In this document: positions 54,438 to 63,668 of the stretch, piece by piece
Layout of the letters: each line of letters starts with the position of its first letter
Position numbering within the stretch: the first letter of the stretch is position 1
From: an uncultured Elusimicrobia bacterium
GTDB lineage: Bacteria; Elusimicrobiota; Elusimicrobia; 2-01-FULL-59-12
DNA: 64,000 bases
Assembly: GCA_963702895.1 (NCBI GenBank)
Contig: OY969767.1
Location: 640,001 to 704,000, forward strand
Direction: 5' to 3'
Notes under the pieces: model-generated
What the model saw: only the letters and a program-made list of their open reading frames with translations
Database searches by the model: none
Told to the model about the DNA's origin: nothing
Made by a program: the position numbers and the translations under genes

Positions 54438-54466
54438 TTGACAATACAATCCGTCGCCGCTAGACT
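54438..54466 (+). promoter_or_regulatory. sigma70-type promoter
   Basis: TTGACA-N17-TAGACT, 22 nt before ATG 54489. Confidence 0.75.
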
Positions 54467-54488
54467 TGCTCTAGCCAAGGGGGGCATT

Positions 54489-55181
54489 ATGAAAACACGC
54501 ATACTATTGGTCGAAGACGATCCAGCGCTCCGAAAACTCCTCAAGGAAGCCCTTCCGGAGAGCATTTTTATTATTGATATCGCGGAAACGGGCCGGGAAG
54601 GCCTGGACATGATCGTCAAACGTAAACCCGATCTCATTCTCCTCGACTGGAACCTTCCCGACTTGAACGGATTCGAGGTCTGCAAGTACATCAAGCAAAA
54701 CAAGGACTGCGCGCACATTCCCATCATCATGGTGACGGCCTATTCGGAGCTCAATCGCAAGGTGTCGGCGCTCGATGTCGGGGCAGACGACTATATCACC
54801 AAGCCGTTTGAGATCGAGGAGCTCATCGCCCGCGTCAAAGCGGTTCTGCGCCGCCGGCAGGGCGGCGCGCCCGAGGAAGCCATTACGAAAGAAAATGTGA
54901 TGATCAACCTCACGACCTATACGGTGGAGGTCGACAAGAAGCCGGTCATCCTCACGGCCAAAGAATTTGACCTTCTGTATGTGCTCATGAAAAACGCGGG
55001 GAGGATCCTCACCCGGGAATTTCTCCTCGAGCGCATCTGGGGCTACGCGGTGGACGTGTCCACGCGTACCGTCGACGTCCATATCCGGCGCCTGCGCAAG
55101 AAGTTGGGGACCAAACATGAGGACCTGATTCAAACCTATCGCGGTGTCGGGTATAAGTTCAAGGATGATGCTCGACGGTAG
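54489..55181 (+). CDS. OmpR/PhoB-family response regulator
   Basis: VEDD, LLD, GADDYITKPF, LTAKEFDLL, RTVDVHIRRLRKKL, RGVGY. Confidence 0.95.
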   Translation: MKTRILLVEDDPALRKLLKEALPESIFIIDIAETGREGLDMIVKRKPDLILLDWNLPDLNGFEVCKYIKQNKDCAHIPIIMVTAYSELNRKVSALDVGADDYITKPFEIEELIARVKAVLRRRQGGAPEEAITKENVMINLTTYTVEVDKKPVILTAKEFDLLYVLMKNAGRILTREFLLERIWGYAVDVSTRTVDVHIRRLRKKLGTKHEDLIQTYRGVGYKFKDDARR

Positions 55182-55192
55182 GCCATGATCCG

Positions 55193-56131
55193 ATGGAGCG
55201 ATCGCCTCATGCCGTTATCCTGGTCGCCGATGATGAAGAGGCCGTCGCGACCCTCCTCAAAGATGCTCTGGAAAGCCTCCACTATGAAGTGCGCGTCGCC
55301 TATAACGGTGAAGAGGCCATGCGACAGATCCGGTCCAGCCCGCCTGACCTTCTCCTCCTCGATATTATGATGCCTGGAATGAGCGGCTACGATGTTTGCA
55401 GACAGGTGAAATCCGATGTGTTCTTGCGCCATATCCCGGTGATGCTTCTGACCGCCAAGGTGGGCACGAGCAGCAAAGTCACCGGCCTTGAGCAGGGCGC
55501 CGATGACTATCTGACCAAGCCCTTCGAGATGGCCGAGCTCTTGGCCCGGATCCGAACGCTTCTGCGCCGGACACGCCTGGGGCTTGAGGCGAACCCCCTC
55601 TCGCGCCTGCCCGGCAATGTGACCATCGAAAATGAGATCGTCAAGCGCATTGAGAGCCAAACGCCCTTTGCCGTCCTCTACATCGATTTAAACGATTTTA
55701 AGGCCTACAACGACATCTACGGCTTCGTGAAGGGGGATGAGGTGATCCGCGCGACCTCCAGGATCGTGCTCACCCAGTCCCTTTCGGCAGAGGGCTTTGT
55801 GGGCCATATCGGAGGGGATGATTTCATCGTGGTCGCGCGACCAGACCAGGCCGAAAGCCTGGCCAAGGGCATGATCAAGGCCTTTGACGCGAAGTCCCCG
55901 GATTTCTACACCCCTGAAGACCGCGCAAGAGGCTATATTGAGACCAAAGACCGCCGGGGCGAGTTGACGCGTTTCCCGCTCTTGTCGATCGCCATCGGCG
56001 TGGCCACGACCCAGGTCCGCCCCTTAACCTCCCTGGGTGAGGTCTCCAAGATCGGCACGGAACTGAAGCGTTTCGCGAAAGAGCGCAAACACCATGGATC
56101 GTTTTATGCGATTGATCGAAGAAAAATATAA
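55193..56131 (+). CDS. REC-GGDEF protein (GGDDF variant)
   Basis: Receiver domain plus NPLSRLPGN, FKAYND.YG..GD, HIGGDDF. Confidence 0.9.
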   Translation: MERSPHAVILVADDEEAVATLLKDALESLHYEVRVAYNGEEAMRQIRSSPPDLLLLDIMMPGMSGYDVCRQVKSDVFLRHIPVMLLTAKVGTSSKVTGLEQGADDYLTKPFEMAELLARIRTLLRRTRLGLEANPLSRLPGNVTIENEIVKRIESQTPFAVLYIDLNDFKAYNDIYGFVKGDEVIRATSRIVLTQSLSAEGFVGHIGGDDFIVVARPDQAESLAKGMIKAFDAKSPDFYTPEDRARGYIETKDRRGELTRFPLLSIAIGVATTQVRPLTSLGEVSKIGTELKRFAKERKHHGSFYAIDRRKI

Positions 56132-56331
56132 ACGCTTAGAGTTGTCATCCCGGCGTGTTGTAAGCCGGCCCTCCACACATCCGGCGGGCCGGGTCGCCGG
56201 GCGTGTGGAGACCCGGGATCCATCATGTATTTTGACGTCGATGATGGACCCCGTCCGCCACACGGCAGGGCGGACGGCCCGCCGGATGTGTGGAGGGCCG
56301 GATTACGGATCTCCGGGGTGACGTCCTTTTT

Positions 56332-57018
56332 ATGAAATATAAGATTCTTGTCGTCGAAGATAGTAAGACTGACGCGGAAGCCCTGGCCACGGCCTGTCAA
56401 CTGGGTGGGTTTCAGACGTCCCTGGCGGATTCGGGAGAAAAGGCCCTGGAAATGGTCTGGACCTGGAAGCCGGACATGCTCCTCTTGGACCTATCCCTTC
56501 CCGGGATTAATGGCAAGGAAGTTTGCCGTATTCTTCGCGAGGATGACCGGGGGAAAGCCATCCCGCTCATCATGGTCTCCGTCGCCAAGGAACGGGGAGA
56601 TATCCTCGCGGGTTTTGCGGCCGGCACGGATGACTATCTGACCAAGCCCGTCGAGCCCCAAGAGCTCGTCGCCCGCATGAACGCGGTCCTGCGCCGCTAC
56701 CACAAGAAGAATGGCGAAGGAGAGATCCTCAAAGTCGGCAAGGTGATGCTCGACCTCTCCAAGCACCGCGTGGAGGTGGGAGGGGAGCTCGTGAAGCTCA
56801 CCGGCAAGGAATTCGGGCTTCTCGAAGTCATGATGAAAAAGTCCGGCCGCGTGCTCTCCCGACAATTTCTGCTGGAATACGTTTGGGGTTATGAAGAAGA
56901 AGTGCTCACCCGCACCATCGACATGCACATCGCCCGGCTTCGCCAGAAGCTCGGTGACGAAGGCCGGGAGCGCATCCAGACGGTGGAACGCTTCGGCTAC
57001 CGCTTCTCCGACGAATAA
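56332..57018 (+). CDS. OmpR/PhoB-family response regulator
   Basis: VEDS, LLD, DDYLTKP, RTIDMHIARLRQKL. Confidence 0.93.
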   Translation: MKYKILVVEDSKTDAEALATACQLGGFQTSLADSGEKALEMVWTWKPDMLLLDLSLPGINGKEVCRILREDDRGKAIPLIMVSVAKERGDILAGFAAGTDDYLTKPVEPQELVARMNAVLRRYHKKNGEGEILKVGKVMLDLSKHRVEVGGELVKLTGKEFGLLEVMMKKSGRVLSRQFLLEYVWGYEEEVLTRTIDMHIARLRQKLGDEGRERIQTVERFGYRFSDE

Positions 57019-57751
57019 TCTCCAAAGCACACATGCCTTCTCTCGCGGACTTCTTTGCGGAAGGGAGGCTGGTTTCATCCGTGCGCGAGGAGATTCCTGG
57101 CGCCGTCTCGGTTGGGCGTACCCCCCATCCCCCGTCTCCGACGGGGAGTGAGGACGCCCAACCTTCGACGGCCTGCCGAATCTCACGCGCATCTCCAGAA
57201 ACCAGCCTCCCTTCCGCAGGCATTGAAGTGACCGTTTCCGTTGGGATACTCAGCGCTAACCGGAACCTTTCTGTTCAAGTCCCCGCCATTGCTCCATTGG
57301 CGGGTGCGTCTTATAGGCCGGTCGTCGCATGCTTTTGCTGTTCAAAGAGGAAATTGGGGCCGGCAAGCCGTCGGACACTCCTTATCACAAATGCTGCAAT
57401 CATTGAAAAGACTTGATGTGCAGATGACCCAGACCTCCATTGAGGCATGTGCTGAACCGAAGAGCTTGGTCAGATGAGCATGCTCGCTCTTCACGCACAT
57501 GTTGATCGATGTGTCGTCAACCCATGTCGTAGGAAATGCTTCAAACAAGAGCTGTTTCTTGCACAACAGCTATGGAAAGCTGGCCCTGGTCTCCAGAGTC
57601 GTGCGTGGGATTGGACAAGCCGTCGAAGGTTGGGCGTCCTCACTCCCCGTCGGAGACGGGGGATGGGGGGTACGCCCAACCGAGACGGCGGCAACAATCC
57701 CCTCGCACGACTCTGGAGACCAGGGCCAGATCCCGTCGATCTTTCCGATCT

Positions 57752-57816
57752 GTAACCTTCCTTTTACAATCTTTTTACACCGCCGTAACACCCATGTGAC
57801 AGCATACCGCTATACT
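57752..57816 (+). promoter_or_regulatory. Five hexamers at exact 11-bp period plus -10 TATACT (OmpR/PhoB-type boxes)
   Basis: GTAACC 57752, TTTACA 57763, TTTACA 57774, GTAACA 57785, GTGACA 57796, TATACT 57811. Confidence 0.7.
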
Positions 57817-57836: not shown

Positions 57837-58223
57837 ATGGAACGCCGACTCTTAATGATTGACGACGACATCGCGCTGGGCAAGCTCGTGCAGGAGTTCT
57901 TGACCGGCGAAGGCTGGAGCTGCTATTGGGTCGATAACGGCGAAGAAGGCTATCAAGAAGCCCTGGCGCTTAAGCCCGATGTGATCCTCCTCGATCTGAA
58001 TTTGCCGGGCGTCGGCGGCATGGAGCTTTGTCACCGGATGAAGGGCGACCCACGCCTTTCGCATATTCCGATTGTGATTTTAACAGGGGCCTACAAGGAA
58101 GTGCGCGACCGGGTGAGGGGCCTCGAGCGCGGCGCGGACGACTATATCCTAAAGCCGTTTGATTTGGACATTCTTCTGGCGCGGCTCAACAGCATCTCGC
58201 GGGTCAAAGGCAAAGTCGCCTAG
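57837..58223 (+). CDS. Single-domain response regulator (receiver only)
   Basis: IDDD, LLDLNLP, GADDYILKPF; no output domain. Confidence 0.9.
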   Translation: MERRLLMIDDDIALGKLVQEFLTGEGWSCYWVDNGEEGYQEALALKPDVILLDLNLPGVGGMELCHRMKGDPRLSHIPIVILTGAYKEVRDRVRGLERGADDYILKPFDLDILLARLNSISRVKGKVA

Positions 58224-58288: not shown

Positions 58289-58325
58289 AAAAGGGACAGT
58301 CCTAAGGACTGTCCCCTTCTGTTTC
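58289..58325. terminator. Probable bidirectional terminator
   Basis: AAAAA-GGGACAGTCC-TAA-GGACTGTCCC-CTTCTGTTT between convergent genes. Confidence 0.65.
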
Positions 58326-58364: not shown

Positions 58365-60587
58365 CTACCGCCGAGGCTCCTGATCACCATACTGCGCGCC
58401 AGCCCCTCGACGTGCCGCCGCCGCGGCCCCACGAGCGCTCGTGCTTCCCCCTGCGGCGGTGTTCGCCATCGCGTTCTGTCGAGCGAGGGCTTCGTTGGCT
58501 TCATCGGTCGGCACGACGGCGCCATTTGCGTTTTTCTTGAACATCTTGACGCGGCCTTCCCCTGGCGCCACCCTTCTTAGCATATAGCCGTCATAATCGA
58601 CGGTTTCCATGTTGACATGGTATCGAGCGGCTTCACCAGGTGCCGTAATATCTTTAGAGACCCAGGTGACTTTCATGCCCGAGACGCCATCGTTTCCAGA
58701 TTCTTGGTAAAAGGTTTTGCCCATGAGACCCTCAGGGTTGGATGGCAGGCGACGGGACGGGTCAATCGCGGCTTGGAAAGAGTCTCGTGCGCCTGGCAGT
58801 TGCGTGACGGTTATGGGAATGGACTGGCTCACGGGACCAGTGACAGACAGGTCAATGCCGAGCCCCATGAGGGCCGCCCCCGCGACGATTGGAATGGCAT
58901 TCTTGCCAAGAGCTGTATACCACGGCCCGGTGTTGGGCATCTTCGTGACATCGCCCTTGGTGGCATCTTCTGGATTGTCTTTTTTCCTGTTCAGCCATCC
59001 AGCGATTAAGCTGACAAGAACAATCGCAGCTAAAGCTATCCATCCTAAAACGGGTATTCCTCCGAAAACCATGGCCATACTGCCGATCATGCTGAGGGCC
59101 GACATGGCGAGAGAGGCGAACCCGCTCCACGAGAAGCCATTCTGTCCCATGGCAAACCCCGAAGCAAATGTGCCTATGGCACTCGCAACAATCCCGATGA
59201 CACCGAGCGTTTTGCCGAGTGTTGTCAGGGAGCTCCAACCTTTTGCCGCAGCATCTGCCACATGGGTTAAAGAATTCGGAAGCATGTTCAAGGCAGCGGT
59301 ACTGGCTGCACCTATCGCGCCAGCAATGGCGCCTATCTTGCCCATTGTGCTGCCAGTTACCCCACTGGTATCGTTATCGCTGTCGTCCTGATCGTTGATA
59401 TCGTCTACGTCCGTATCGTCTGTCGTATCAGTGGTCGTGTCATCCGTCGTGTCATCCGCAGTGTTGTCATCCGTCGTGTCATCTCCGTCGTCCGGCACCG
59501 GTGGTGTGTTTCCAATCGGTGTGTTGGGGTCGGTGAGATCAGGCGGTTTATTTTCAATCACTGTGTTGGGGTCGTCTATTGACGTGTTGGGGTCAGCAAT
59601 ATTTTGGATGGGATTGACGGAGTCGTCATCCGAAACGGTGGGCGAAGGGGGGCGGGCGCCGCCATCGGCCAGCGTGGCCGTGGCAAATTGCCGGCCCGTG
59701 GCTGTGCCTGAAAAGGAGTTGTTGGTGGCGGTACCAGCACTTGTTGTGTTGGTGCTCCCCGAACCCTGGCCCCCCGTTGTAGACCCCGTACCGTTGGTCA
59801 CGTTGCTCCCCGAACTCTGGCCCCCCGTTGTAGACCCCGTACCATGGACCAGATCTAGGTTTTCAACAGGCAGGTTGAGGAAGCCAGGCCCATCGATTTT
59901 TCCTACCACTTTCGTGCCGTTGTAGATGGTGTAGGTTTTAAAGTCGATGCTATAGCCCTGCGGGAGAGACAGCACGTTCCCCTGGGTATCACGGATCACG
60001 ATGCCGCTTCCGTCGCGCGTGATGGCCAAGTCGATGGGTTGATCCTCCCCTACCAGCTTCAATTGGGCGTTGGGCTTCAGAATGCTCGAGGGGTCCTTCG
60101 GGATTCCGGCAGATTCGGCCGGCAGGCGGAAGAAGCCGGGGCCCTGGATCTGCCCGGCGACTTTGTTGTTGAAGTAAATCGTGTTCGTTTGTAAGTCGAC
60201 GGTGTAGCCGCTCGGCAGGGAAAGGGGCTGACCCTGGGCATCGCGGACGACGATGCCGCTTCCTTCGCGCGTGATGGCAACATCCTTCGTACTCCCCAGA
60301 AGCGTGAGCTTGGCGTTAGTTCCCAATAAGGGGCTGTCGGGATTCAATACTTGTTCCGACGGCAGGTCCAGAAAGTTGGGGGCCTTCAGTTGCCCGGCCG
60401 GTTTTCCCAAGTAATAAAGGGTGCCGGTTTCGAAATTGATGCCGGTCCCTTCAGGCAGAGAGACGAGCTGGCCAGAGTCGTCCCGAAGGATAATGCCGCT
60501 GCCGCTCCGGGTGACGCGGACGTTGAGCTTGTCATCGAAGAGAGAAAGGTCACCGTTTGTCACGATGGTGGGGGCTGTTGTGCTCAT
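58365..60587 (-). CDS. Uncharacterised 740-aa protein: three 80-aa repeats, acidic linker, hydrophobic helices, conserved C-terminal domain
   Basis: Long ORF whose C-terminal part is paralogous to 60584-62806. Confidence 0.85.
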   Translation of the reverse strand: MSTTAPTIVTNGDLSLFDDKLNVRVTRSGSGIILRDDSGQLVSLPEGTGINFETGTLYYLGKPAGQLKAPNFLDLPSEQVLNPDSPLLGTNAKLTLLGSTKDVAITREGSGIVVRDAQGQPLSLPSGYTVDLQTNTIYFNNKVAGQIQGPGFFRLPAESAGIPKDPSSILKPNAQLKLVGEDQPIDLAITRDGSGIVIRDTQGNVLSLPQGYSIDFKTYTIYNGTKVVGKIDGPGFLNLPVENLDLVHGTGSTTGGQSSGSNVTNGTGSTTGGQGSGSTNTTSAGTATNNSFSGTATGRQFATATLADGGARPPSPTVSDDDSVNPIQNIADPNTSIDDPNTVIENKPPDLTDPNTPIGNTPPVPDDGDDTTDDNTADDTTDDTTTDTTDDTDVDDINDQDDSDNDTSGVTGSTMGKIGAIAGAIGAASTAALNMLPNSLTHVADAAAKGWSSLTTLGKTLGVIGIVASAIGTFASGFAMGQNGFSWSGFASLAMSALSMIGSMAMVFGGIPVLGWIALAAIVLVSLIAGWLNRKKDNPEDATKGDVTKMPNTGPWYTALGKNAIPIVAGAALMGLGIDLSVTGPVSQSIPITVTQLPGARDSFQAAIDPSRRLPSNPEGLMGKTFYQESGNDGVSGMKVTWVSKDITAPGEAARYHVNMETVDYDGYMLRRVAPGEGRVKMFKKNANGAVVPTDEANEALARQNAMANTAAGGSTSARGAAAAARRGAGAQYGDQEPRR

Positions 60588-62806
60588 TTGTTTTCAACCT
60601 CCGAGTTATCAGCCGCTCCCCCGTTATGGGCAGCGGCGACAGATCCATCAGGACTTGTGACATTGCTGGCGGCGGCCATGGAATACGCGCGCACTCGACC
60701 GATGGCATCGTTGCCCGCTCGTGTCGCGACCACAGCGCCATTGGCGTCGCGCTCGAAAATAGGGACATAGGAATCCGACGGATCGTTCGGGCCAACCATG
60801 GCGCCTTTATAATTAAGGCTGAGCATGTTCACGGAATAAGTCGCGGCTTTATCCTTCGTCGGCATGGAGTCCTGGGACACATAGACCACCTTGTCAGGTG
60901 TGACCCCGTTGTTTTCAGAGCTCTGAATAAAAACTTTCCCTAATACGCCAGTGCCGATCCCGGGCAGTTTGCCGCCGCCAACGGAGGTGTCGAGGGCGTT
61001 TCTCCAGCCGGTCAGCTCGCTCGCCTTGATGGCGATGGATTTGTCGGAGGGTCCCTCTAAGCCCAGGTTGAGCCCCAAGGCCATGAGCGCCGCGGCAGAG
61101 GTGATCATAAATACGTTTTTGCTTCCCAGGCTCTTGTACCAGGGCTTGGGCTCGGCGTACTTTTTCTCTTGGGCAACCACCTTCTGACCGTTGGCGGATG
61201 TGGTCTGGCTCGTTGGCGTCGTCTGCGTGGCTGGGACTGGCGGTACATCGCCGGGGCCGCCTTCTTCGTTGTCCTTCTTTTTTTTATGACCGAGCCAATA
61301 GCCAAGCGCCATGATGAGGCCGGCGACCATGGCCGAGTAGCCCACGCCCCATTTGAAAATAGCATCAAAACCCTGCATAAAGCTTGTAACAGACGGGACC
61401 AAGCTGACGATCCCTGTCCATGCGGACTGGCCCTCCTGGAGATTGCCCAGCGCCATTCCCAAAGCAAAGAGCGAAAAACCTCCGCCGATCATGCCCACGA
61501 GCGCCATGGGATTGGATTTCATGCGCTGGCCTAGCGAGGTTTCTGATCCGGCCGAAGCTCCGGCGCCCGCGCCTTTTTCGGTGATCTCCTCAGGGCCCCT
61601 AAGCCCCGCTGCCATTTCCCCGGCTGCCTGGTCATTCATGCTTGCACCGATGAGATTGCCCTCGCTGTCGTAAACCCTTGTTACGGTTTTGTCAGAATAT
61701 TGAACGTTGGGATTGACGTTGCCCTTTTCGTCAAAAAAGTTTCCTGAAGATGCAGGACCAGTCTCTTTCACGACGGTAACACCCGTCTCGGCAAATACTT
61801 TGCTTTCTCCCGGCTTCATCGAGGCTATGGTCTGCGCATAGCGCGCGCTGTTCGCCCTTGCTTCGTCCGCAGACCAAAGGGCCGTGCTCACCACTTTTCG
61901 TGCCGTGTCAGCATTGTACGTGCTGATCGATTTACCGTTGCCGAGGGGCACGGTGTATTCTGTTTTGCCGCCAACGGTTTGCGTTGTGACACGTGGGTCA
62001 TACAATGGATCCGCTTCGTTAAAGGACTTTCCTCCTATTAGGTGCTGATCAAAGGGGACGGTGTTTCCATCCGAATAGGTAGTAGCAGTGGGGTTGCGTG
62101 GTTTCACATAGGGTGCTGAAAGGTCAGCTGTTCCGATCTTGCTCGTTGTGCTGCTTAAAGGTGTTCCGTTCACAATGGCATTCTTGATATTGTGCGCACT
62201 GGCGCCAGCGATAGAGTGATCGGCATTCGCCGTGTCAAGATATCCTGCGACCTCTCCGTTGCTGCCCTTCAGTTCAAAATAACCTACGCCGTTCTGATCC
62301 TTTGCCATAGCACCAACTTTATAGGACACACCGTTTTTCCCAGCAAAAGTCACTGTCTGCCCTGTGACTATCTTTTGACCACCGTAATCAATCCCATCTG
62401 TAACGGGAGTAAAAGTAAGCTGTGTAGCGGGTACCGGGGCGGCGGCCTGTGAATGCGAAGCAACAAGCGGAGTGGGTGCCGGGGCGGCGGCCTGTGAATG
62501 CGAAGAAACAAGCGGAGCGGGTGGCGTAGCAGGAGGAGTGGGTGTCGGATAACCAGGAAATGGCGGTAATGATTGATGCAAATCCCCAGTAGACCGGAAT
62601 GTCCCAAGGGTAGTGTGACCATCTACGATAGTTGTAACTCCATTATTCGGTGAATAGGAAAGTTGATAGTTCCCGCCGAGACTACTAAAGTGGTCGCCAT
62701 TGGGCACAAGTATCTTGTTATTGATCAGATCTCTATAGGCAGTAACGGCATTGCCATTAGGCATTGTTAATACAATTTTCTCATACGGTGATGTGATTGA
62801 GCTCAT
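60584..62806 (-). CDS. Uncharacterised 740-aa protein, paralogue of the downstream gene
   Basis: Long ORF, RBS GAGG, ATGA overlap with the next gene. Confidence 0.85.
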   Translation of the reverse strand: MSSITSPYEKIVLTMPNGNAVTAYRDLINNKILVPNGDHFSSLGGNYQLSYSPNNGVTTIVDGHTTLGTFRSTGDLHQSLPPFPGYPTPTPPATPPAPLVSSHSQAAAPAPTPLVASHSQAAAPVPATQLTFTPVTDGIDYGGQKIVTGQTVTFAGKNGVSYKVGAMAKDQNGVGYFELKGSNGEVAGYLDTANADHSIAGASAHNIKNAIVNGTPLSSTTSKIGTADLSAPYVKPRNPTATTYSDGNTVPFDQHLIGGKSFNEADPLYDPRVTTQTVGGKTEYTVPLGNGKSISTYNADTARKVVSTALWSADEARANSARYAQTIASMKPGESKVFAETGVTVVKETGPASSGNFFDEKGNVNPNVQYSDKTVTRVYDSEGNLIGASMNDQAAGEMAAGLRGPEEITEKGAGAGASAGSETSLGQRMKSNPMALVGMIGGGFSLFALGMALGNLQEGQSAWTGIVSLVPSVTSFMQGFDAIFKWGVGYSAMVAGLIMALGYWLGHKKKKDNEEGGPGDVPPVPATQTTPTSQTTSANGQKVVAQEKKYAEPKPWYKSLGSKNVFMITSAAALMALGLNLGLEGPSDKSIAIKASELTGWRNALDTSVGGGKLPGIGTGVLGKVFIQSSENNGVTPDKVVYVSQDSMPTKDKAATYSVNMLSLNYKGAMVGPNDPSDSYVPIFERDANGAVVATRAGNDAIGRVRAYSMAAASNVTSPDGSVAAAHNGGAADNSEVENK

Positions 62807-62859: not shown

Positions 62860-62913
62860 AGTTTGACGTTTTAGTGTTACAAGCGGGTTAATTGAATGTT
62901 ACATTTCGGTTAA
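62860..62913 (-). promoter_or_regulatory. Four hexamers at exact 11-bp period (OmpR/PhoB-type boxes) upstream of the 740-aa pair
   Basis: Minus strand TTAACC-N5-GTAACA-N5-TTAACC-N5-GTAACA-N9-CAAACT. Confidence 0.6.
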
Positions 62914-63196
62914 ATCCGCCTTCCCGGATGGCCTATGCCTCCGACGGAGAACCCCAAAATGGCATAGGTCCTTTGGCGAAGGTATATAGGCCCATAAAAT
63001 GGCGCGAAAAATCGAGAAACGAGAAGCGAGAAACCAGAGCTGAGAGCAAAAAAATGGGGGTAATTTTTGCCCGATTGGCCTGGGCCTTTCGACTACTAAA
63101 ACATGGGCCCTATGGAAAAATATATTAGACGAAAAGGGGAAGGTCCAATGGCGAGCAGCATGAATAACGTTCCCAAAGAGTTCATAGCAAAAATGA

Positions 63197-63550
63197 CAAA
63201 GCAGAGACACGAAAGCAAAAACTCAGAGCAGAAATCTCGTATTTCTGCTTTGTGGCTTTGCTTTCGTCGGTCTGCTTTGTCAGTTCTGTTTTGATCTTTG
63301 AGAAAGATCCAGCTTTCAGAGCAGAATCACCAAAGCAGAGACACGAACGCAAAAACACAACGCAGAAATCTCAGAGTTCTGCTTTTGCTTTCGTCGGTCT
63401 GCTTTGAGGGCTCTGCTTTGCTCTTTGAGAAAGATCCAGCTCTCAGAGCAGAATCACCAAAGCAGAGACACGAACGCAAAAACTCAGAGCAGAAATCTCA
63501 GAGTTCTGCTTTTGCTTTCGTCGGTCTGCTTTGAGGGCTCTGCTTTGTTC
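63197..63550. repeat. Three tandem 127-134-bp palindromic units
   Basis: Units start at 63197, 63331 and 63458; each reads CAAAGCAGA...TCTGCTTTG. Confidence 0.9.
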
Positions 63551-63668
63551 TTTTGCTTTCATGGCAATCCCCCCACCCACCCTCCCCTTGCACACGCAGG
63601 AAGCCAGTCACCCTTCCGCCGTCCGTCTCTTCCGCCGCCCGCCTCTTCCGGCGTCTCCGTCTGAAGAA

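Follow-up and report, generated by a model that had tools for sequence, protein, structure and literature searches.

Two signal-less Elusimicrobiota paralogues with a conserved C-terminal domain as candidate membrane-inserting partners of a Tad pilus and giant-protein locus

Several described systems resemble, each in part, a pair of adjacent genes, here called A and B, of an uncultured Elusimicrobia bacterium; the pair lies in a 64,000-nucleotide stretch (the window; contig OY969767.1, positions 640,001 to 704,000) of a closed 2.72-Mb genome that is 98% complete (G000). Like A and B, the translocators SctE and SctB of type III secretion systems (T3SS; YopB/YopD, IpaB/IpaC) lack a Sec signal and carry hydrophobic segments, which in their case are meant for a foreign membrane, according to the passages of PMC6140923 on which we draw. 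In Tke5, a member of the BTH_I2691/VasX-like effectors of type VI secretion systems (T6SS), the excerpts of PMC12909789 describe Gly/Ala-rich predicted transmembrane helices as the pore region, followed by a beta-rich membrane-binding domain; A and B may present an analogous order, with Gly/Ala-rich predicted membrane helices and then a C-terminal beta-rich domain. The Kil system of Myxococcus, a Tad-like system with a needle-less T3SS*, likewise places a Tad apparatus in a context of cell contact, and the sections of PMC12075869 cited here leave its toxic or pore components without identification and the delivery step open. Omnitrophota giant proteins with SecA-like domains lie in a similar neighbourhood, with loci like those of Tad and of type II secretion systems (T2SS), in the excerpts of two preprints (bioRxiv 10.1101/2023.11.21.568195 and 10.64898/2026.06.07.730766). 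The former suggests that these domains may secrete the giant itself "or accessory proteins". In these excerpts neither preprint mentions signal-less hydrophobic partner proteins or a shared operator; the terms "pore" and "translocon" do not occur in those of 10.1101/2023.11.21.568195, nor "pore-forming" and "translocon" in those of 10.64898/2026.06.07.730766.

The explanation that we favour, and hold tentatively, is that the two paralogues are exported, membrane-inserting (translocator- or pore-like) subunits of a cell-contact apparatus that includes a Tad pilus and giant membrane proteins. We favour it because the proteins are signal-less and extracellular-like in composition, because their two to three hydrophobic helices are rich in Gly and Ala, because their operator is common with Tad and giant-protein operons, and because one relative lacks the family gene together with that Tad system and the giants.

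Gene A (P0002; 60584..62806) and gene B (P0001; 58365..60587), both on the minus strand, as are all parts of them located below, encode 740 amino acids (aa) each. As the initial annotation proposed, they are tandem paralogues coupled by an ATGA stop/start overlap (60584..60587), with a GGAGG ribosome site within A just upstream (the junction reads ...GGAGGTTGAAAACAAATGA); no upstream in-frame start exists for either. The genes of T3SS translocators, too, are often neighbours. A and B align in their C-terminal part (33% identity over 373 aa, A371-738, E 3e-43), where the shared motif described earlier is present as written. B starts, as had been noticed, with three repeats of about 80 aa (residues 9-240, 59868..60563) that agree at 32-41 of 83-84 residues and correspond to a beta module of about 70 aa found singly in other B-type members. 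A low-complexity linker of Gly/Ser/Thr, Pro and Asp/Thr follows (residues 241-414, 59346..59867; predicted local distance difference test score, pLDDT, below 50), then Gly/Ala-rich hydrophobic helices that end before RKKDN (residues 415-534, 58986..59345) and a conserved alpha/beta C-terminal domain, the C-domain (residues 553-729, 58401..58931). A consists of a variable N-terminal region with atypical codon use, Pro/Ala linkers, Gly/Ala-rich hydrophobic helices followed by HKKKKDN (residues 431-507, 61286..61516) and the C-domain (residues 553-730, 60617..61150). The low GC suspected at the 5' end of A is real: GC content at third codon positions is 0.44 in its first 250 codons and 0.68 in codons 430-740, against a genome median of 0.67 and a 5th percentile of 0.55.

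The AlphaFold2 model of B comprises three small beta domains, a disordered linker (236-444), three confident helices (440-532) and the C-domain; the latter, modelled alone from 29 aligned sequences, reached a pLDDT of 86.5 and a predicted template modelling score of 0.65. Foldseek gave no match at E ≤ 0.001 in the Protein Data Bank (PDB) for either model, nor in a viral library for the C-domain. The best VIA match of the helical region was CorB (Z 9.5, root-mean-square deviation (rmsd) 2.2, 84 aligned), which is generic for helix bundles, and that of the C-domain had Z 4.8, rmsd 3.0 and 41 aligned. The VIA alignments spanned helices only, the beta core and the N-terminal module being hardly compared; the absent fold match is therefore no proof of a new fold. 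Prediction of a complex of four C-domain copies scored 0.01.

It had been proposed that unrelated, variable N-termini are mounted on a conserved C-domain. The variability stands: mean identity to B over 16 rows is 0.07 in the repeats and 0.31 in the C-domain, and A-type N-termini are mostly without mutual relatedness. The N-terminus of B is not arbitrary, however, since its module occurs once each in 5 other members.

Searched exhaustively, 1.8 billion representatives yielded 21 proteins at E ≤ 0.001, the two queries included; 10 of the matches were checked by name, and 7 of these are called "hypothetical protein" and 3 are nameless. Word-index protein searches returned the query alone, or the query with one member. 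Walking from the neighbouring receiver gene added 8 members in five genomes, which brings the alignment to 29. Profile A2, built before five of the new members were aligned, scores those five at E 1.7e-30 to 2.6e-20 (two each in G004 and G008, one in G006), while the gene of G009 (E 0.0026 only) was accepted by position and architecture. The verdict that no known family is recognisable survived: no Pfam, NCBIfam or PHROGs family matches more than one of the 29 members, the best PDB sequence matches have E 0.19 (C-terminal profile) and E 0.022 (N-terminal module), and we found no description in the literature covered, most subscription papers lying outside it. The family is thus unassigned in every library searched; its newness concerns the family itself and the membership tests that it fails, not a mechanism.

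By these searches the family is restricted to one Elusimicrobiota family (f1), at a fixed locus, and no match outside it is convincing. Of its 11 genomes, 7 carry members, and among those at least 90% complete the figure is 6 of 7; three fragmented genomes of the same genus are uninformative, as the anchor gene is missing from them too. All 7 genomes have the gene at the same locus, with one or two copies between the receiver gene and an operon for TPR/OmpA and kinase proteins. Outside f1, profile A2 matches in none of 395 genomes, although very diverged members could escape it, and profile A3 matches weakly in 7 of 290 (E 3e-4 to 9e-3); in the three inspected, mainly hydrophobic segments aligned. 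One weak match (E 3e-4), probably compositional, is a contig-end fragment with a Gly/Ala/Met-rich hydrophobic hairpin in family f14 (L090, G470). No member was found in 68 candidate viral stretches, in 10 Tad loci of other families, or in 12 loci with distant homologues of the TPR/OmpA neighbour, which are type IV pilus operons; a metagenome scan yielded one locus. Three short contigs from a public run agree with portions of gene B to within 0-1 differences and may come from the source sample.

The initial annotation spoke of a polymorphic family, and in the usual sense of the term this did not hold. Polymorphic toxins combine a conserved N-terminal trafficking part with a variable C-terminal toxin, and A and B show the reverse; no downstream immunity gene fits into the gaps of 32-203 bp that separate receiver and family genes in the 7 genomes (141 bp next to gene B, too small for an ordinary immunity gene), and there are no orphan cassettes or further copies. 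The closed genome holds only the two copies, and a family with one or two copies at a single locus, present in 7 of the 11 genomes of f1 and convincingly nowhere else, is not an expanding polymorphic-toxin array. G006 and G009 carry a single copy, the two copies of G004 and those of G008 stand on either side of the receiver gene, and in the C-domain tree A and B of G000 group more closely together than with the pairs of G004, G008 and G010. A single group of the five upstream copies is rejected (approximately unbiased test, p-AU 6e-10; 11 rows, with the group named after the 29-row tree had been viewed). Second copies thus appear to have arisen by duplication, or homogenisation, more than once. 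Taken together, the single-copy genomes, the intervening receiver gene and the failure of upstream copies to form a clade make a fixed two-part translocon unlikely.

The claimed lack of a classical signal peptide was supported by a heuristic of our own, not by SignalP: the first 110 aa of A and B hold no uncharged hydrophobic 12-mer with a Kyte-Doolittle hydropathy (KD) of at least 1.8. Such a stretch is also lacking in 21 of the 22 full-length or near-full-length members, the exception being an Ala/Thr run at residue 51. Ser/Thr-rich starts are likewise present, but the enrichment is modest (24% and 28% of residues 2-26; family range 4-40%). When the 1139 open reading frames (ORFs) of at least 300 aa were ranked by extracellular-like composition (rich in Ser/Thr/Asn/Gly, poor in Arg/Glu/Leu), A and B came 14th and 17th; an N-terminal hydrophobic stretch occurs in 32 of the 40 top-ranked ORFs, compared with 35% of 764 control ORFs. 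The proposal of translocator- or pore-like Gly/Ala helices also gained support. The Gly+Ala fraction of hydrophobic segments is 0.345 in the family (n=42, not independent) and 0.220 in the genome (n=1569), and relative to the membrane segments of the genome the family helices are poor in Leu/Phe as well as rich in Gly/Ala. No match to the SRP54/FtsY family was found in G000, whereas all 14 control genomes were positive.

These features place A and B near the T3SS translocators, for which the pattern is no Sec signal and one or two hydrophobic segments; here an N-terminal stretch is lacking in all but one of the 22 full-length or near-full-length members, and three confident helices appear in the model of B. 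The differences are equally clear. The closed genome has no SctV/FlhA export gate (PF00771, 0 matches; the control was positive in 4 of 14 genomes), inspection showed no chaperone neighbour of A and B, none of the 29 members matches SseC or another translocator family in Pfam or NCBIfam at E ≤ 0.1, and A and B are paralogues with an additional conserved C-domain, of which some genomes have a single copy. Among the BTH_I2691/VasX-like effectors, the model NF041559 (positions 679-822 of 858) aligns with B399-534 at E 2.6e-4, a match seen in one of nine proteins, yet our locus shows no MIX-type match, no T6SS sheath gene (PF05943 and PF04984, 0 matches in the closed genome) and no adaptor or immunity gene. 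The last domain of Tke5 is Ig-like in the part of its description used above, whereas the C-domain here lacks a fold match. Unlike the Kil system, G000 has no T3SS* export gate. Finally, cargo of the type IX secretion system (T9SS/PorV), marked by a Sec signal at the N-terminus and an Ig-like sorting domain at the C-terminus, differs in that A and B have neither a signal peptide nor a CTD/FlgD_ig match, although one neighbouring protein does match CTD/FlgD_ig.

Upstream of A lies an operator (62875..62914, minus strand) of four half-sites at an 11-bp pitch, TTTAACC-N4-TGTAACA-N4-ATTAACC-N4-TGTAACA, which is conserved before the family gene in relatives; its half-site spacing resembles that of OmpR/PhoB boxes. 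A two-half-site pattern matches the genome 17 times, compared with 0-2 times in each of 10 dinucleotide shuffles, and 12 of the 17 sites are intergenic, although about 82% of the genome lies within ORFs. In G000 the sites stand before the pair (twice), the receiver gene, the TPR/OmpA-kinase operon, the Tad secretin operon and tadG, and further ones before a 12,887-aa giant, a PorV-like gene, an Ig-repeat protein and an operon with pilin-like genes. Because the pattern was fixed after a looser scan, the site count of G000 is partly circular; independent support comes from the fact that all 11 genomes of f1 carry the pattern (2-17 sites each; reversed control 0 in nine, 1 in two), several of them ahead of comparable genes (tadG, PorV-like or giant-type genes in G002, G005, G009 and G010). 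Candidate binders would be the two OmpR-type regulators (receiver plus Trans_reg_C) that flank a receiver-GGDEF gene (54438..57018, plus strand).

Some other genes lie near operator sites. The operator-led TPR/OmpA-kinase operon includes an FtsH-like AAA/M41 protease (L020:8030-9667; G000 711,029-712,669), which is retained in G007. About 2.6 kb downstream of another site are MotA, MotB and a 649-aa protein that joins FliG to TPR (L022:5036-9166; G000 2,298-2,302 kb), in a genome without a flagellar export gate. The single-copy genomes G009 (L062:224-3037) and G006 (L059:1-1517, into L018) encode just 3' of the Tad operon a low-complexity protein of about 935 aa with an apparent signal peptide; that of G009 has a nearly identical four-half-site operator, and the two align neither with each other nor with the family and have no match in G000.

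The third line of evidence concerns the Tad pilus and the giants. In the four contiguous assemblies (G000, G004, G005, G006) the Tad ATPase gene is 13-17 kb away from the family gene. G007 (95% complete) is the one near-complete relative without the family gene, and it also lacks that Tad system and the giants, through two separate gaps on one 475-kb contig. The first gap, which removes the family gene, extends between the receiver gene and a kinase without its receiver part; the second, from a LuxR-type gene to mazG, removes the whole island of Tad and giant-protein genes, about 98 kb in G000. The giant N-domain occurs in 10 of the 11 genomes of f1 and is absent from G007 alone, and a close Tad ATPase orthologue (at least 77% identical) occurs in 9 of 11, missing from G007 and from G001 (73% complete). 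Outside f1 the giant N-domain matches weakly in only 4 of 242 genomes. Since Tad is widespread in the class and the giant N-domain nearly confined to f1, the family tracks that version of the locus which includes giant proteins, and not Tad as such. A 733-aa piece of a 4,068-aa giant has weak DEAD/ResIII matches, which would be in line, by analogy, with the SecA-like domains reported in the preprint excerpts for Omnitrophota giants; the same piece matches in none of 5 relatives, which is uninformative. Loss of a SpoIID-like regulon gene in G007 was considered and dropped, as two homologues are kept. G007 also retains a Tad ATPase paralogue with one TGA within the match (L061; C6:47591-48679), possibly from a decaying second Tad locus.

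If the favoured explanation is right, an OmpR-type regulator would switch on the pair, the Tad genes and the giant-protein genes together. A and B would remain soluble in the cytoplasm, where no SRP54 was found to capture them, and would leave by a non-Sec route, most plausibly through the Tad/giant-protein machinery with its helicase-like motor. The C-domain may be a module for export and assembly or for membrane docking, the helices would insert into the membrane of a target cell on contact, the fast-changing N-termini may set target specificity, and one copy would suffice. Within this scheme, that the proteins are exported, that they enter the membrane of another cell and by which route they travel are all inferences. 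A stronger version, in which A and B form the translocon of an undescribed contact-dependent delivery system, with Tad making the contact and giants with a SecA-like motor exporting signal-less substrates recognised by their C-domain, is in our opinion unlikely.

Several observations weigh against the favoured explanation. The closed genome has no match to the FHIPEP, VirB4, VipB, WXG100 or sheath families, with controls positive and type I systems outside the search; the secretion systems for which the initial annotation suggested looking thus left no type III, IV, VI or VII marker. Its four secretins are accounted for by a type IVa pilus operon, a type II secretion operon and two Tad loci, and substrates of Tad and T2SS are periplasmic. 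By inspection, with no chaperone profile run, no small chaperone or immunity gene lies beside the pair, the only clearly real small gene nearby being the receiver gene. The BTH_I2691 match (19.6 bits) is far below its cut-off of 150 and may be compositional. The operator expression was drawn after the looser, position-weight scan had been viewed, that scan (27 matches, against 16-25 in shuffles) is not enriched by count, and the Tad regions of G004 and G006 have no strict match. The co-loss is that of a single lineage, and since the same gap took the TPR/OmpA and kinase neighbours, loss of the family gene may be hitch-hiking. Homologues of the Tad ATPase are present in 110 of 151 relatives, for the most part in families without a detected member, so that proteins of the A/B type, with strong matches in f1 only, are not core Tad parts. 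Lastly, in hydrophobicity the last helix equals a true anchor (KD 2.6 in B), and the basic patch behind it fits the positive-inside rule and the cell's own membrane.

This last point leads to the best surviving rival, which we regard as possible though rather doubtful: the proteins may be polytopic components of the producer's own inner membrane or envelope, inserted N-out with no cleavable signal, their variable N-terminus exposed to the periplasm or at the cell surface, where it would act as adhesin or scaffold for the Tad/giant apparatus. Most members share the strong last helix with a KKKDN-type patch behind it, and such proteins would require neither the translocator-using types of secretion system that the genome lacks nor an immunity gene; one of the 29 members carries an Asp repeat of the TSP3 type (PF02412, E 0.0018), typical of extracellular proteins, and the regulon and the co-loss fit equally well. 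Passage of a 400-aa N-terminal region without a signal peptide would nevertheless be unusual, the composition of the helices departs from that of the membrane segments of the genome, and in several members the last helix is followed by a long Thr/Pro/Gln linker, not by a cytoplasmic loop.

A signalling role is considerably less probable. The pair adjoins a two-component cascade (Cache kinase, hybrid kinase, standalone receiver, OmpR regulators), of which it might be a membrane accessory or sensor, with the N-terminus as input and the C-domain as cytoplasmic output. Its fixed site between the receiver gene and the TPR/OmpA-kinase operon in 7 genomes, the loss of family gene and kinase in the same gap of G007, and the operator itself, given that autoregulated feedback genes often carry the box of their regulator, would all suit this role. 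The receiver gene (57837..58223, plus strand; own operator box at 57773-57790) is a constant neighbour, retained in G007 and 94-99% identical in 7 other genera, in which other neighbours are much less conserved (topA about 70%, the GGDEF gene about 63%). The C-domain, by contrast, shows 17-48% identity within f1; moreover, no signalling domain occurs in any of the 29 members, and related kinase and regulator genes accompany Tad in other families too, where no member was detected. Least probable of all are colicin-like pore-forming bacteriocins, freed by lysis or in vesicles against competitors and independent of Tad and giants. In their favour, a variable N-terminus before a conserved C-terminal membrane module is the colicin order, the codon use in the 5' part of A looks foreign and a signal peptide is lacking; against them, the short gaps leave no space for an immunity or lysis gene, the chromosomal locus is stable in 7 genera and not mobile, and no colicin family appears among the Pfam and NCBIfam matches.

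Some further elements of the locus should be mentioned. A hairpin (58293..58315) lies between gene B and the convergent receiver gene. Three tandem palindromic repeats of about 127 bp (63179-63555) have the promoter of the pair on one side and a DUF1016/YhcG gene on the other, and two related elements resembling miniature inverted-repeat transposable elements, each with a terminal inverted repeat, lie in inverted orientation at 57056-57218 and 57580-57729 (121 nt, 88%).

If the own-membrane alternative holds, A and B are lineage-specific envelope proteins of modest interest. In any case, the family supplies a C-domain without a detected fold match and an operator that defines a regulon. Giants beside Tad loci are suspected of predation, and the literature passages cited here name no substrate and no component that breaches a membrane. 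If the delivery-system version were true, A and B would be the first candidates both for substrates and for a pore of the giant-protein machines in Elusimicrobiota and their Omnitrophota-like counterparts; and because the family is small enough to express and assay, the question of what such machines deliver, and how they breach a membrane, would become testable.

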